A stretch of 28,052 nt of DNA from Anaerolineae bacterium (GCA_050050015.1 JASFVD010000001.1:1-28052); one strand, 5' to 3'; shown: positions 16,871 through 20,771, counted from the stretch's first letter. Program-made: numbers and translations. The notes: generated from the sequence alone by a model not told the origin.

Positions 16871-17917
16871 TCACTCGATGAGAAGGCTGCCGATGTCGTC
16901 CGGAGTGACACCTGGGCTCTCGATACCATGCTCCTCGTAGAACCGGCTCACGACCCGCGGAGCGGCCTCCACGGGCAAACCGTTGAGTGCTTCCTCGAGA
17001 TCACGCAGCTTCTGTTCAGGATAAAAGAAGAAGTCTCCCGACAATGAAACCGCGGCCAGGGTACCGTCTCGCACCTCGGTGACGGCACGGATCAGACCAC
17101 CGGGCGCCTTCTTCATGCGCTGGTGCACACTGACCCCCGAGCGTATCTTGACATCCCGCTCGGTGCTCGGTGGGAGGCCCTTTCGGTGGAGCCAGGCATC
17201 GGAGAGCAGGGTCTTTCCCAAGTCGTCGGCCTTCGAGCGCCACTCGCCGTCAACCTCGGTCACGGTCTCGAGTGGCCCCAGCATCTCCGTGAACTCATCG
17301 GCCATCAGCGACCAAAGCTCATCACGAGAAGGCACGCAGTCCAACTCGCGCTTGATTGTCGAGAGATTCTCCCGAATCGTCTTGTACACCTTGTCTCGAA
17401 ACTTCTCGTCAGGCACCCTCAGCACACAAGCCATCATCTCGTAGTCGAAGTCGACGATCAGGTTGCCAACCAGAATGGAATAGTCCCCAATCTCCGCCGC
17501 TCCGCACCCAGAGACTTTGCGGTCGTTAGCGACGATATCGTTGACCTCACGATACTCAGCAGGAATACCCAAAGCGCGGTAGGCCTCGATCGGCGCCTGA
17601 AGGAACTTGCGATAGAAGGCCAGCTTCCCACCTTCGGGGATCAAGGGATTGTCCCGGTGGATGACCATCTGGAAGAAAAGCTGGTCTCCATCTAAGTAGA
17701 CGGCGCCTCCGCCAACCTCGCGTCGGATAATGGGGATGTCGTTCTCGCGGCAGAAGGCCACGTCCACCTCTTGCTCCACGTCCTGAAAGTAGCCGATGCA
17801 CACGTACGGCGTCGCGGGCGCTAGCAGGTTCAGACCCTCCCGCCCCAGACGAGGCAGCGCGTGATAGAGGAGCTGAGAGTCCTGCCACGAAACAGCCTTG
17901 AGAAGGTTGAGCTTCAT
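16871..17917 (-). CDS. Lipoate-protein ligase family protein (catalytic domain plus C-terminal accessory domain)
   Basis: PYVCIGYFQ, IIRREVGGGAVYLD, NDIV...RKVSGCG, GNLIVDFD; C-terminal KAPGGLIRA...SGDFFFYPE. Confidence 0.9.
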   Translation of the reverse strand: MKLNLLKAVSWQDSQLLYHALPRLGREGLNLLAPATPYVCIGYFQDVEQEVDVAFCRENDIPIIRREVGGGAVYLDGDQLFFQMVIHRDNPLIPEGGKLAFYRKFLQAPIEAYRALGIPAEYREVNDIVANDRKVSGCGAAEIGDYSILVGNLIVDFDYEMMACVLRVPDEKFRDKVYKTIRENLSTIKRELDCVPSRDELWSLMADEFTEMLGPLETVTEVDGEWRSKADDLGKTLLSDAWLHRKGLPPSTERDVKIRSGVSVHQRMKKAPGGLIRAVTEVRDGTLAAVSLSGDFFFYPEQKLRDLEEALNGLPVEAAPRVVSRFYEEHGIESPGVTPDDIGSLLIE

Positions 17918-17987
17918 AGGCTTTCCTTGTTGCAGTGAAGAAAGAACATGCTGCCAAGCCAGAGGTCACGTCGAACCAGATAGCAGG

Positions 17988-19205
17988 CTAACGCACCATT
18001 TGTCTCGCGATCAGCTCGGCCACATCCATGGCTCGGACGCGAATCCTCTCCTTCCGAGCTGCCTCGGCCAAAGTACGCTCGCACTGTTGACACGCCGAGA
18101 GAATCACTTGCGCCTGCGTTGTCACTGCCTCCTGGACACGACGAGCGGCAACGGCCGCCGTCAGATCCTTGTCAGCCATCTCGACGTCGCCTCCGCCACC
18201 ACAGCAAAGAGAGTGCTCAGAGTGGTGCTCCATCTCTGTGAACGCAATCTCCGGAATCGCCTGGATGATCCGACGCGGAGCCTCGTAGATCCCGCTCGTA
18301 CGACCTAGGTCGCAGGGATCGTGATAGGTTACCGGCCGCTTGAAGGGCTTCAGCTCGATCTGCCCGCTGTCGATCATCTCATCCAGAACTTCCACCGCGT
18401 GCAACACCTCAAACCCCAACGGTTCTCCCAGGATCCGCGGATAGTCGTGCTTCCAGGTGTGATAGCACGAAGGACATGCCGCAACCAGCCGCTTCGCGCC
18501 CGTCCTTCTCACGGCCTCCAGATTGTGGCGCATGCCGTCTACCGCCGCGTCGCCCATACCTGCGATCACCAACGGGAAGCCACAGCACCACTCCTCGCCC
18601 CCCAGCGTAAGAAAATCTACGTCGGCATGCCCGAGAATCTCCACAATGCTCTGAGGTACGGAGTAAGATCGTGGGTAAAATGAAGCCACACAGCCGACGA
18701 AGTAGACGATCTCGGCCGTCTCCTTCTGCCCCACTCCCGCCGGCACGTCCGCAAGGTTCTCACTCCAGATGAGCCGGTCCTCGTTCACGTCGGACGATAT
18801 GTTGTGGTGAGTGGTCACAGTCTCCCGGAGGTGATCGAAGGTCTCCGGATAGACCCGCTGATCGACCAACGTCTCGCGCATCGAGATCCAAAGCGAACGC
18901 GTGTCGATGTGAACCGGGCATACCGTCCCGCACCTACCGCAGAGCGTACAATCGAACGTTCCGCCCGAGTGCTCCGTCAGCTCTTGCTCATCAAGAGGGC
19001 GCGGACCGGTCAATCGAGCCCAAAGTCCGTGCTGACGTCTCACGAAGTCACGCACAGCCTCGATCTTACGAAGCGGCGTGATCGAGTCTCGCTCGGGTTT
19101 CTCCGCAAACGTGGGACACCATTCCACACACTCGCCGCAGCGGGTGCATGCGTCCAGTTCCATCAGCTGCATTAGCGCGTAGCGCTTCAGGTCAAGCTTG
19201 GACAC
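17988..19205 (-). CDS. HdrD/GlcF-like iron-sulfur oxidoreductase (2x[4Fe-4S] plus two CCG domains)
   Basis: CTRCGECVEWCP and CTLCGRCGTVCP; CCG domain 1 (GC...WCCG...CPSC) and domain 2 (HDPC...LCCG...CQQC). AAGGAG RBS before GTG 19205, which overlaps the upstream gene end by 14 nt. Confidence 0.88.
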   Translation of the reverse strand: MSKLDLKRYALMQLMELDACTRCGECVEWCPTFAEKPERDSITPLRKIEAVRDFVRRQHGLWARLTGPRPLDEQELTEHSGGTFDCTLCGRCGTVCPVHIDTRSLWISMRETLVDQRVYPETFDHLRETVTTHHNISSDVNEDRLIWSENLADVPAGVGQKETAEIVYFVGCVASFYPRSYSVPQSIVEILGHADVDFLTLGGEEWCCGFPLVIAGMGDAAVDGMRHNLEAVRRTGAKRLVAACPSCYHTWKHDYPRILGEPLGFEVLHAVEVLDEMIDSGQIELKPFKRPVTYHDPCDLGRTSGIYEAPRRIIQAIPEIAFTEMEHHSEHSLCCGGGGDVEMADKDLTAAVAARRVQEAVTTQAQVILSACQQCERTLAEAARKERIRVRAMDVAELIARQMVR

Positions 19206-20037
19206 GAGCTGCTCCTTTCTCGAGGCCCGCGTGCTCGTCTGTCTGCTCATCCATATCCCGGACAATGGTCACGAGCGCGCCTGCGATGACGTGCATGAAC
19301 TTGGAGAAGGGAATGGTGACAATCACCAGCGATGTGAGGATCCCGTGCCCCACATACAACCAGGGGTGGAGGGCATCCCAAGGGATAGAAAGCCCGCGCA
19401 CCAAAGAAGCCAGCGGATACCCGACGAAGGCTACGTACGCCGCAGGCCCCACGTGACTTGAACTCAGCCTCACCACCTCGGCTACCCACCCCGAGAGCAA
19501 GATCGCCCCCAGTCCGATCATCATCCAATTGTCCATCGGTCCCGTTCTGAGCTGGGACGGAGCGGAAAGGTAGCGACGCAGGAGAAAGAAGAGAAGGCCG
19601 ACAGTCATAAGCACGCCGCCAATCTCGTTCAACAGCCCCGTGACAGGATGATCAGGAGTGACCCACATCCCTATCCATGGCACGTCCTCGAGATGAAAGA
19701 AATGGATGAGCACCTTATCGCTCAGGGCGGACACTCCGGAAAGCGTCATTAGGAGCATGAAACCGGTGAGCAACAAGAAGTGATTCAACCAACGCCAGAA
19801 GCTCGTACGATAGAGGCGGCGGTTGAACCATGCCTCGCTTATGAAGGATCGAATCAGCAAGCCCAGCCGGGGGCTGAAGATCGTCTCAACTACATCTCGG
19901 AACACGTTTCCAAGGCCTAGCTCGTCCGCCCCGCCCCTCAGCCAGGTGGTAAAGACGACTGTCATCCCCACGAAAAAGAACGCCATCAAAGGCAGATGGA
20001 CGATCCAGAAGACCGTCTCCGCAGTCTCAATTGTCAT
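19192..20037 (-). CDS. NarI/HdrE/DsrM-like cytochrome b membrane subunit
   Basis: About 5-6 TM helices; WLNH86FLLLTGF, NEIGG, RRY, SGWVAE and H231...IPFSKFMH249, typical of the nitrate reductase gamma-like family. Confidence 0.78.
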   Translation of the reverse strand: MTIETAETVFWIVHLPLMAFFFVGMTVVFTTWLRGGADELGLGNVFRDVVETIFSPRLGLLIRSFISEAWFNRRLYRTSFWRWLNHFLLLTGFMLLMTLSGVSALSDKVLIHFFHLEDVPWIGMWVTPDHPVTGLLNEIGGVLMTVGLLFFLLRRYLSAPSQLRTGPMDNWMMIGLGAILLSGWVAEVVRLSSSHVGPAAYVAFVGYPLASLVRGLSIPWDALHPWLYVGHGILTSLVIVTIPFSKFMHVIAGALVTIVRDMDEQTDEHAGLEKGAARVQA

Positions 20038-20174
20038 CAGAAGAGCACCCTTTCACTCGCGTAGACCCCAGGGACAATCACAAAGCTCGGTCCGAGCACC
20101 TCAATGCAAAACCGCTCTTCCCCTTCAAAGGGTGAGCTCGCAGGCGACGTGCGCGACCGAGATCAAGTCATGAG

Positions 20175-20228
20175 AAAAAGACCCCGCAGGACACGCACCG
20201 GTCCTCCACGTCCGAGTCCTCGGGGTCT
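20175..20228 (-). terminator. Terminator-like hairpin inside the operon, after the lipoyl carrier gene
   Basis: Minus-strand AGACCCCG-AGGAC...GUCCU-G-CGGGGUCU followed by a short U-tract. Confidence 0.6.
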
Positions 20229-20262
20229 CATCCAGCCCACCATCAAGTCGAGCGTTGCCCAA

Positions 20263-20694
20263 CTAGCTCAGTATTTCCTCGTACTCCTCGAGTTCCTCCT
20301 CAATGAACGCCTTGAATTCATCCGAGTCGGGCTTCATCAGGTTGTCGAGCTCAGCGCTGTCGGACATCTCTACCTTGACGAGCCAGCCTTCGCCGTAAGG
20401 GTCCTCATTGACCAACATGGGCTCCCACTCCAGCTCGTCGTTGGCCTCCAGAATCTCACCGCTGACCATAGCCGGGATACGGCCAACCCACTTGCCCGAC
20501 TCCATGGACATGAACGTCTCGCCCTGCTCCACCGCGCGGCCAACAAAGGGCATCTCGACGAAGACGATCTCCTGGGCGATCTGCTGTCCCAAATCGGTCA
20601 GCCCCTGGGTGACGACATGGCCTTCGATCAAAGCCCAGTTGTGCTTGCGGTCGTAGTAGAGGTTGTCGCTAAACTCAATCCCGCCAATTTCCAT
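20263..20694 (-). CDS. Lipoyl carrier protein, GcvH fold, LbpA-like
   Basis: NLYY..HNW, GLTDLG, MESGK68WVG (lipoyl lysine) and VNEDPYGEGWLVK; GGAGG RBS. Confidence 0.9.
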   Translation of the reverse strand: MEIGGIEFSDNLYYDRKHNWALIEGHVVTQGLTDLGQQIAQEIVFVEMPFVGRAVEQGETFMSMESGKWVGRIPAMVSGEILEANDELEWEPMLVNEDPYGEGWLVKVEMSDSAELDNLMKPDSDEFKAFIEEELEEYEEILS

Positions 20695-20742
20695 GATGTC
20701 CTCCTAGTCACCAGATGTAGCTTGATTGCCTCGTGAGCACCG

Positions 20743-20771
20743 ATTATATCACATCTCCTAGGAACGATCAA
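20743..20771 (-). promoter_or_regulatory. Sigma70 promoter for the lipoyl carrier/Hdr-like operon
   Basis: Minus strand TTGATC-N17-TATAAT with extended TGn. Confidence 0.75.

Follow-up and report, generated by a model that had tools for sequence, protein, structure and literature searches.

A specialised lipoyl carrier gene conserved beside a DsrMK/HdrDE-like membrane enzyme in Anaerolineae

Gene content and transcription signals of the locus

What might a lipoyl carrier do beside the genes of a membrane-bound Hdr-type enzyme? The question arises from a 28,052-nucleotide stretch of DNA (the window) of an uncultured wetland Chloroflexota bacterium, whose draft genome is 65.6% complete. Four co-oriented minus-strand genes, running from 20694 down to 16871, encode a GcvH-fold carrier, a NarI/HdrE-like membrane protein, an HdrD-like protein and a lipoate ligase. 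The ORFs and Pfam domains agree with the first-pass annotation of all four. The features of the locus are as follows.

20743 to 20771, minus strand: candidate promoter of sigma-70 type with an extended -10 element, ahead of the carrier gene (consensus match only)
20263 to 20694, minus strand: LbpA-like (GcvH-fold) lipoyl carrier, 143 aa (PF01597 at 1.8e-35)
20170 to 20229, minus strand: terminator-like hairpin of 52 nt, then UUUUUCUC, directly 3′ of the carrier gene
19192 to 20037, minus strand: NarI/HdrE/DsrM-like membrane subunit, 281 aa (PF02665 at 2.7e-7)
17988 to 19205, minus strand: HdrD-like cytoplasmic iron-sulfur subunit, 405 aa (4Fe-4S dicluster domain and two CCG domains)
16871 to 17917, minus strand: dedicated lipoate-protein ligase, LplA type, with LplA-B_cat and C-terminal domains, 348 aa (PF21948 at 1.1e-34)

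The NarI-like stop codon ends at 19192 and the HdrD-like GTG start lies at 19205, giving the 14-nt overlap already described. From this GTG the HdrD-like protein is 405 aa long, the same length as its orthologues. Scanned against Pfam, the remaining window ORFs of at least 120 aa included no gcvT/P, E1/E2/E3, sHdrA/B/C or ETF genes; apart from ETF, which had not been named, these absences had been noted at first pass.

The locus had also been read as driven by one strong promoter. A candidate site does exist (TTGATC, 17 nt, TATAAT, with TG before the -10 element; 10/12 matches, 20771-20743), but a consensus scan found two such sites in the region versus 1.3 expected, so the candidate alone is weak evidence. 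The gap between the carrier gene and the next gene is 225 nt. The 116-nt piece holding the hairpin has an MFE of -50.1 kcal/mol and a fold z of -2.5. RNA-library contigs cover all four genes, and the carrier gene has contigs in 4/4 metatranscriptome libraries. In three runs the contigs stop at 20183-20199, within the hairpin element, although contig ends cannot prove an RNA end. Because the terminator-like hairpin sits between the carrier gene and the enzyme genes, a single-promoter operon is doubtful.

The carrier paralogue and its ligase

The window carrier has the same fold and lipoyl-lysine position as GcvH, and solved GcvH structures are 40% identical to it. It is nevertheless not the glycine cleavage H protein: it scored 98 bits against TIGR00527 (the GcvH equivalog), under the cut-off of 115.85, versus 153 for the canonical copy, and it does not lie beside gcvT/P, whereas a canonical gcvH adjoins gcvP on contig C372 of the same genome. 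The NF002270 subfamily model matched it with 132 bits, above the cut-off of 117. This genome and 5/5 relatives each have exactly two GCV_H genes, one of them canonical. The window carrier is a specialised paralogue, distinct from canonical gcvH. Its predicted lipoyl-Lys68 (codon 20491-20493) lies within the family motif ESGKWVG, in contrast to ESVKAASD in GcvH; all 36 aligned carrier sequences have K68, and the motif around it is conserved too.

The first-pass annotation had asked whether the carrier sides with LbpA or with GcvH. Its fold and conserved lipoyl-lysine are those by which LbpA is recognised, and it shares the lipoyl-site motif with LbpA of type II sHdr loci. In a quick unrooted tree of 74 rows, built without reference LbpA from proteobacteria, the branch to canonical GcvH has a length of 1.51, and the path from the window clade is about 0.8 to LbpA versus 1.7 to GcvH, with 63% support for the joining branch. 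The window carriers form a clade separate from LbpA. A typical LbpA would have conserved cysteines and an association with the shdr core genes, and the window carrier has neither: sHdrA, B1 and C1 were found neither in the window nor in 55 related loci. In type II sHdr loci from the same class (family f2), residue 6 or 7 of LbpA is a cysteine, and one of two f2 LbpA clades has further cysteines at 143 and 146. The window carrier contains none; its pI is 4.05, and it carries an additional acidic helix at the C-terminus. Cysteine-free carriers make up 39/44 of its clade. Given the missing LbpA cysteines and the GcvH-like acidity, the chemistry of this carrier may differ from that of LbpA.

The ligase scored 129.9 bits against TIGR00545, under the cut-off of 280. 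It shares 37% identity with its counterpart in type II sHdr loci, and both show the same below-cut-off NCBIfam hit pattern. Elsewhere in the genome are a canonical (housekeeping) LipA gene and a second ligase-family gene whose similarity to the window ligase is only marginal. LipS1/LipS2, the companions looked for with an sLpl(AB) ligase, are confined to a distant locus (L100 type). The first-pass annotation had asked whether hosts lack lpd, which would have fitted an E3-independent enzyme. Two Lpd-like genes, both under the model's cut-off, are present, and their products could reoxidise the carrier independently of the HdrD-like enzyme; that part of the proposal is not borne out.

Conservation of the enzyme and of its link to the carrier

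The NarI-like protein has about five transmembrane helices (hydropathy peaks at 12-30, 87-105, 135-153, 171-189 and 233-251). All 43 sequences keep H86, H231 and H249, and a fourth haem-ligand candidate, H112 or H115, is not invariant. From the three invariant histidines, the protein is probably a dihaem cytochrome b. In many relatives it is fused with the HdrD-like protein. In 62 HdrD-like sequences, C20, C26 and C30 of the first ferredoxin motif are invariant and C23 is present in at least 90%; C86, C89, C92 and C96 of the second are invariant. Both CCG motifs are complete, the first with C172, C207, C208, C244 and C247 invariant and the second with C298, C334, C335 and C372 invariant and C375 in at least 90%.

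A carrier gene lies near the HdrD-like orthologue in 30/43 Anaerolineae/Thermoflexia loci; of the others, seven are cut by contig ends and six are not, so linkage in cis is not strict. The ligase adjoins the block in 15/43. Gene order varies among linked loci (carrier-NarI-HdrD-Lpl or NarI-HdrD-carrier-Lpl). Where adjacency is lacking, a carrier paralogue occurs elsewhere in 4/5 genomes, and in three of those the ligase comes directly after it. The carrier is adjacent in 5/5 Chloroflexota species genomes that, within a 300-genome sample, have an orthologue at 40% identity or more, and also in three distant contigs at 36-40% identity (L085, L086 and L099). The survey thus supports a conserved functional block and a ligase that accompanies the carrier. 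As the genes are kept together across many relatives, the carrier is probably the substrate of the Hdr-type enzyme.

In the HdrD-like tree, all 40 carrier-linked sequences fall in one clade (SH-aLRT 97), and the 36 outgroup rows include no carrier-linked sequence, in line with the suggestion of a distinct enzyme. This clade is separate from nine Methanosarcinaceae HdrD rows and from EMO- and EtfD-like proteins; EMO-like fusions form their own clade with 100% support.

Some close relatives insert a Tat-exported PhsA/PsrA-like molybdoenzyme and a multihaem c-NarI fusion into the block, and additions in some relatives include a DsrP-like NrfD protein together with an FeS protein and multihaem cytochrome c. 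The periplasmic molybdoenzyme and multihaem cytochrome c had not featured in the first-pass annotation. Overall, the recurring neighbours of the block are respiratory modules and sulfur relays.

A possible role and its place among known systems

We lean, with moderate confidence, towards the four genes forming one module, a DsrMK/HdrDE-like quinone-linked enzyme that acts on the lipoyl carrier. The LplA-type ligase would lipoylate Lys68 of the specialised cysteine-free, LbpA-related carrier. Its (dihydro)lipoyl arm, possibly with sulfane sulfur, would serve the HdrD-like subunit as a thiol/disulfide substrate in the cytoplasm. Two non-cubane [4Fe-4S] clusters, expected in the subunit's two CCG motifs by analogy with HdrB, would react directly with the arm. 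Electrons would then pass over two ferredoxin-type clusters and the NarI-like cytochrome b haems to the quinone pool. Textbook standard potentials are about -290 mV for lipoamide and about -75 mV for menaquinone, which makes dihydrolipoyl to menaquinone the downhill direction. In relatives, the core may be wired via the NarI-fused multihaem cytochrome c to the periplasmic PhsA/PsrA-like molybdoenzyme or a hydrogenase.

A variant that we regard as possible but unlikely gives the lipoyl arm another load: sulfane sulfur (persulfide or trisulfide) from TusA/DsrE-type relays, in place of a plain dithiol/disulfide shuttle. The HdrD-like site would then reduce the bound sulfur to sulfide (compare the DsrK/DsrC trisulfide) or oxidise it, as proposed for sHdr-LbpA. 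In three distant loci (L100, L106 and L107) the trio is embedded among TusA, DsrE, DsrH and ThiF genes, with LipS1/LipS2 and ThiS also present in L100. These relays, the molybdoenzyme of close relatives, three TusA genes in the window's own genome and the lipoyl-site motif common to the carrier and LbpA all fit such a role. However, the blocks of the window and of the nearest relatives contain no TusA, DsrE or rhodanese gene, the genome has no DsrE above the cut-off, and the carrier lacks the LbpA cysteines. Gene context fitting the link between lipoyl and sulfur chemistry raised at first pass is thus seen around distant versions of the block, as in sHdr-LbpA systems, but not around the window's own. 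At 65.6% completeness, sHdr, DsrE and ETF partners could exist in this genome despite not being found.

Another alternative, which we consider improbable, is a thiol-homeostasis or antioxidant module in which a quinol-driven HdrDE-like enzyme only keeps the lipoyl protein reduced and feeds Ohr/OsmC-type peroxidases or thiol enzymes. GcvH-like proteins are reported to serve OsmC/Ohr and oxidative-stress resistance (bioRxiv 10.64898/2026.10.01.755906; PMC12440151), and the window carrier is GcvH-like in charge and free of cysteines. Against this, Ohr, OsmC and peroxiredoxin genes were found neither in the window nor across the loci examined, the recurring neighbours are of other kinds, and transfer from menaquinol to the lipoyl disulfide would run uphill.

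Very improbably, NarI/HdrD could be an ETF:quinone oxidoreductase of EMO/EtfD type or an ordinary HdrD-like dehydrogenase subunit, with the carrier and ligase as unrelated neighbours (for example a cofactor-assembly lipoyl relay). In favour, the closest match by sequence among solved structures is a 1042-aa 'iron-sulfur-binding reductase' (9ojn, 130 bits), EMO of type II sHdr loci shows 26% identity, and the genome has several further HdrD-like paralogues without a carrier. Against it, Etf genes, including EtfA, are absent from all 55 carrier/HdrDE-type loci, EMO- and EtfD-like proteins are separate clades, the carrier link survives changes of gene order, carrier and enzyme genes still co-occur in genomes where they are unlinked, and the housekeeping LipA and the second ligase-family gene lie elsewhere.

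Returning to the module acting on a lipoyl protein, its closest parallels are membrane enzymes with other substrates. HdrDE, the membrane CoM-S-S-CoB reductase of Methanosarcinales, likewise pairs a NarI-like cytochrome b with an HdrD bearing 2x[4Fe-4S] and two CCG motifs. Methanosarcinaceae HdrD are 35-37% identical to the HdrD-like protein over full length; with this identity and the separate clade, orthology was rejected. The module's host is bacterial, and its conserved lipoyl carrier and ligase are absent from methanogen loci. CoM/CoB metabolism is not expected in such a host, and the lipoyl protein would replace CoM-S-S-CoB.

DsrMK(JOP) with DsrC, the Hmc and Tmc complexes of sulfate reducers and the Isp1/Isp2 of Isp-type [NiFe] hydrogenases are likewise built from a NarI-type cytochrome b and an HdrD-like CCG subunit in the cytoplasm. 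In all of them the CCG subunit acts on a thiol or sulfur carried by a protein. Compared with these, the module has both CCG motifs complete and a lipoyl protein as conserved partner, which would stand in for DsrC. The protein is not DsrK: DsrC (PF04358) was not found in this genome or in four relatives, and the DsrK model gave 107 bits versus a cut-off of 400.

The nearest published relative is the type II sHdr-LbpA sulfur-oxidation system, shdrC1B1AHB3-etfAB-emo with lbpA and sLpl (Tanabe et al., 2024, PMC11094781; Cao et al., 2018, PMC6067878). Both have a GcvH-fold carrier with an ES[GA]KWVG site, an adjoining dedicated Lpl ligase, proteins with CCG clusters and a membrane element with NarI-like and HdrD-like parts (EMO in sHdr), and the TusA/DsrE relay and LipS1/S2 of type II sHdr recur in the module's distant relatives. 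The f2 loci hold most of the type II set, with no sHdrC1/B1 in the stretch read. In contrast, the module's block lacks sHdrA, sHdrB1/C1, sHdrB3 and EtfAB genes, and an HdrA search over 10 genomes returned only generic HdrA-like matches of at most 43% identity. With EMO (26%) and sHdrB3 the HdrD-like protein shares 26-28% identity, and it belongs to another clade; an EMO/EtfD identity was rejected on this separation and on the missing EtfA in the window and the 55 loci. The architecture had not been recognised at first pass as a characterised complex; we found no paper that pairs a lipoyl carrier with a membrane Hdr-type enzyme, although type II sHdr with its EMO comes near. If our reading is true, the LbpA-linked Hdr-like systems would gain in this module a third architecture, a membrane-only one.

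The four-gene block and its transcription

The four co-oriented minus-strand genes at 16871-20771 described in the first-pass annotation were borne out by ORFs and domain matches, as was the 14-nt overlap of the HdrD-like and NarI-like genes, which lies between a GTG at 19205 and the NarI-like stop codon. The features are as follows.

20771-20743, minus strand: promoter-like site with an extended -10 element
20263-20694, minus strand: carrier of GcvH fold, 143 aa (PF01597 at 1.8e-35)
20229-20170, minus strand: terminator-like hairpin of 52 nt, then UUUUUCUC (U-run), in the 225-nt gap 3′ of the carrier gene
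19192-20037, minus strand: NarI-like membrane subunit, 281 aa (PF02665 at 2.7e-7)
17988-19205, minus strand: HdrD-like iron-sulfur subunit, 405 aa from the GTG at 19205
16871-17917, minus strand: ligase, 348 aa, with LplA catalytic and C-terminal domains

Pfam searches of the remaining sizeable ORFs revealed no gcvT/P, 2-oxoacid dehydrogenase E1/E2, E3, sHdrA/B/C or ETF gene in the window, and the observation of a block without these neighbors is therefore confirmed. Matches elsewhere in the window were to a TPR regulator, an aminotransferase, a NuoE/NuoF/GltD-like trio, MurJ, PNPase, a signal peptidase, a LuxR-type two-component pair, glmS, a PDZ/radical-SAM DUF512 protein, cytidylate kinase, a nitroreductase and an M23 peptidase. 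The module is concealed by its database names, which are “glycine cleavage system H protein” for the carrier and, for the enzyme, “heterodisulfide reductase subunit D” or “(Fe-S)-binding protein.”

The 405 aa obtained for the HdrD-like protein from the GTG start is the size of nearly all its orthologues. Of its eight ferredoxin-cluster cysteines, C23 is kept in at least 90% of 62 sequences and the other seven in all of them. All residues of CCG-1 (C172, C207, C208, C244, C247) are invariant, as are C298, C334, C335 and C372 of CCG-2, whose C375 is kept in at least 90%. Having both CCG motifs complete fits the HdrB/HdrD pattern, which stands for two non-cubane clusters. The NarI-like protein has about five hydrophobic helices and invariant H86, H231 and H249, the last two lying on the final helix with a spacing of 18 residues, as in NarI. 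H112 or H115 is a candidate fourth haem ligand, kept in 20-22 of the 27 sequences that extend over this position. Sequence searches of solved structures gave no match for this protein at E up to 1. In many relatives it is fused to the HdrD-like protein, which supports a complex of the two. Complex prediction for the HdrD-like protein (62-row alignment) and the carrier (36-row) scored 0.22 against a mark of 0.32 and bears neither way.

The claim that one promoter serves all four genes is doubtful: a promoter-like site is present at 20771-20743, but the hairpin at 20229-20170 weakens the case. Hairpins also lie 3′ of the carrier gene in two relatives' loci (L045 and L077), with a U-run in that of L077, and a high ratio of carrier to enzyme expression may be the consequence. 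Contigs that match the carrier gene at full identity were found in all four wetland metatranscriptome libraries, and RNA contigs with parts of the HdrD-like gene, of the NarI/HdrD junction and of the ligase gene occurred in single libraries. RNA contigs of three runs end at 20183-20199, within the hairpin, though contig ends cannot prove RNA ends. This suggests transcription of the block genes, with the carrier message possibly stopping at the hairpin, though DNA carry-over in the contigs is possible.

Between glmS and the carrier gene is a 132-aa ORF (20882-21280, minus strand) with no Pfam or NCBIfam match. The syntenic locus L043 has no space for a counterpart, and RNA-library contigs span 20997-21321, over part of the ORF. 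This stretch may represent the 3′ region of glmS instead of a gene.

Conservation and surroundings of the block

Scanning species genomes yielded 43 Chloroflexota loci with an HdrD-like orthologue (60-80% identity), whose gene content was determined by tblastn with defined query proteins because longest-ORF calling chose antisense ORFs in GC-rich loci. The neighborhood survey showed the block to be conserved, with the carrier near the orthologue in 30 of the 43 loci and the order varying. In seven loci the contig ends where the carrier would lie, and six truly lack it within the available sequence. Most loci have the order carrier-NarI-HdrD(-ligase), L078-L084 have NarI-HdrD-carrier(-ligase), and the ligase adjoins the block in 15/43. 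Four of five genomes without adjacency encode a carrier paralogue elsewhere (63-66% identity), directly followed in three of them by a ligase orthologue. For P0125 no carrier was seen, on a contig of only 2.7 kb that is too short to inform. Among 300 evenly sampled Chloroflexota species genomes, an orthologue at ≥40% identity occurs in only five, all with the carrier adjacent. Close homologues all come from Anaerolineae or Thermoflexia MAGs, and the window DNA was found in wetland metagenomes.

The HdrD-carrier pair also occurs on three contigs at 36-40% identity (L085, L086 and L099). L085 is labelled Candidatus Methanoperedens and L086 Actinomycetota, and their HdrD-like and carrier genes are nearly identical; at least one of the bin assignments is probably wrong.

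In a maximum-likelihood tree built by quick search from 95 HdrD-like sequences, all 40 carrier-linked proteins fall in one clade (SH-aLRT 97), together with truncated loci, a six-member subclade whose carrier is unlinked and a few paralogues. No carrier is nearby in any of the 36 rows outside the clade, which comprise Methanosarcinaceae HdrD, EMO-like NarI-HdrD fusions, EtfD-like proteins (~1040 aa), a paralogue on contig C115 of the host genome and two Thermodesulfobacteriota copies.

The surroundings of the block fall into several types. Five loci (L043, L044, L064, L068 and L073) have a five-gene insert between the carrier and HdrD-like genes, encoding a Tat-signal PhsA/PsrA-like molybdoenzyme, a four-cluster FeS protein, a DsrP-like NrfD, a TorD/NarJ chaperone and a multihaem c-NarI fusion. 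The insert is also present in L076 and, with another gene order, in L083 and L084. L043 is syntenic with the window (identities of 94% for glmS, 68% for the kinase and 93% for the regulator) and carries the insert region at 1138-7994; the insert is 5 kb in close relatives. The window looks like a reduced form of these loci, with the 225-nt gap in place of the insert. In hydrogenase-type loci, such as L056, a [NiFe]-hydrogenase large subunit gene lies just upstream, with two multihaem membrane cytochromes. An HdrA-like fragment, the large subunit gene and a multihaem c/cytochrome b561 protein adjoin or precede the carrier gene at L056:311-6574, and HdrA-like matches were also detected in L044, L050, L052, L061, L062, L065 and L072. 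In sulfur-relay loci (L100 and the Chloroflexota genomes G077 and G291), NarI-HdrD-carrier sits amid ThiF, TusA, DsrE and DsrH genes, to which L100 adds LipS1, Lpl, LipS2 and ThiS. An AIRS/AIRS_C-domain protein (PurM/ThiL/SelD/HypE superfamily) is encoded between the HdrD-like and carrier genes at L100:7310-8263 and may provide an ATP-dependent sulfur-activating step.

The constant core is NarI, the HdrD-like protein and the carrier (with or without the ligase), and the outward-facing or sulfur-handling modules vary. DsrMK, compared with DsrMKJOP, Hmc and Tmc, shows the same pattern.

The carrier, its host and sHdr-LbpA systems

The carrier family has an invariant Lys68 in E-[SA]-G-K-[WY]-[VIL]-G, where canonical copies have ESVKAA[SA]D. 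Its members usually lack cysteine, show a pI of 4.0-4.9 and carry an additional C-terminal helix. Back-translated ESGKW[VIL]G has matches in 27 of 301 Chloroflexota genomes, including the host. In a 74-row carrier tree, canonical GcvH is on a long branch and the window clade is nearer the LbpA clades, with a weakly supported joining branch.

The host genome contains a second GCV_H gene directly 5′ of gcvP (contig C372), which passes the GcvH equivalog model at 153 bits, whereas the window carrier scores 98 bits (cut-off 115.85). It also has a second ligase-family gene, single-domain and with marginal similarity to the window ligase, as well as a canonical LipA (389 bits). Given the second GCV_H and ligase-family genes, the window carrier and ligase are extra, dedicated copies; five of five relatives' genomes have exactly two GCV_H genes each. 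The idea of a host without E3 is unsupported, as two Lpd-like genes are present, both under the model cut-off.

Published type II sHdr loci have the arrangement shdrC1B1AHB3-etfAB-emo with lbpA (PMC11094781). Clusters in f2, a family of the same class, match most of this arrangement, in the order sHdrA-like, hypothetical, sHdrB3-like, EtfB, EtfA, EMO, two carriers and Lpl; neither sHdrC1 nor sHdrB1 was seen in the stretch of these clusters that was read. Their ligase is 37% identical to that of the window, but EMO and sHdrB3 are only 26-28% identical to the HdrD-like protein. The f2 LbpA has a conserved N-terminal cysteine and, in one of two clades, a C-terminal pair; the window carrier clade has neither. 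The comparison of sequence and gene content points to the module as a relative of LbpA systems that is without soluble sHdr proteins and ETF, with the split NarI/HdrD pair as its only Hdr-like component. For sHdrA, a search of 10 genomes yielded nothing but generic HdrA paralogues, in large number (≤43% identity), with sHdr possible elsewhere.

At L135:2498-7854 (genome G274), an FeS-NrfD fusion and a 994-aa molybdopterin oxidoreductase follow an f2 type II sHdr-like cluster; thus, a Psr-like enzyme accompanies LbpA systems in f2 too. Contig C115 of the host genome G000 (L112:195-3629) encodes an HdrA-like, HdrD/sHdrB3-like (38% identity), HdrA-like trio without a carrier. Its CCG protein is one of about ten encoded in this genome.

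Function and significance of the module

On balance, we favor the reading that the module is a quinone-linked DsrMK/HdrDE-like thiol:disulfide oxidoreductase whose substrate would be the lipoyl arm of the dedicated carrier; it might work in either direction. By standard potentials, electron transfer from dihydrolipoyl to menaquinone is downhill; in the hydrogenase- and molybdoenzyme-linked versions electrons could flow either way. A close variant, in which the lipoyl arm carries sulfane sulfur, appears rather unlikely; the host genome has three TusA genes, and its DsrE search gave a sub-threshold match at most, none convincing, at 65.6% completeness. A role in thiol homeostasis is improbable, and an unrelated EMO-like enzyme more so, both being less likely than the thiol:disulfide reading and its sulfur variant. 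EMO/EtfD itself was rejected, as no Etf gene occurs in the window and 55 loci and the proteins belong to a different clade. DsrMK was rejected because DsrC was not found in the host genome (65.6% complete) or in four relatives, and canonical glycine cleavage was rejected in view of the second, canonical gcvH beside gcvP.

Every part of the module belongs to a known family, and an LbpA and a NarI-HdrD protein are already combined in published type II sHdr systems (PMC11094781). Full-text searches, which mostly do not cover subscription journals, found no paper on GcvH or LbpA with HdrD, HdrDE or DsrMK, and no description of a lipoyl carrier paired with an HdrDE-type membrane enzyme that stands alone.

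More tentatively than for the thiol:disulfide oxidoreductase itself, a lipoylated H-protein paralogue might be the long-sought cytoplasmic dithiol/disulfide (or sulfur-carrying) partner of an entire clade of bacterial HdrDE/DsrMK-type membrane complexes, making protein-bound lipoate a respiratory electron carrier without the E3 flavoprotein. If so, the quinone pool, periplasmic molybdoenzymes, multihaem cytochromes or hydrogenases would be linked to cytoplasmic thiol/sulfur chemistry, and the module would be a third architecture of LbpA-dependent metabolism, without soluble sHdr and ETF. To our knowledge, no substrate has been assigned to many of the HdrD-like, DsrK-like and Isp2-like proteins of bacteria, and lipoate has been described almost exclusively as a swinging arm, in 2-oxoacid dehydrogenases, in glycine cleavage and, lately, in the soluble sHdr complex of sulfur oxidation. 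Direct docking of a lipoyl protein on a membrane cytochrome b/CCG enzyme would, if true, provide a testable substrate for these enzymes and give lipoate a further role, in membrane-bound energy conservation. The metabolism of the abundant, uncultured Anaerolineae of wetlands and sediments would also become easier to interpret.
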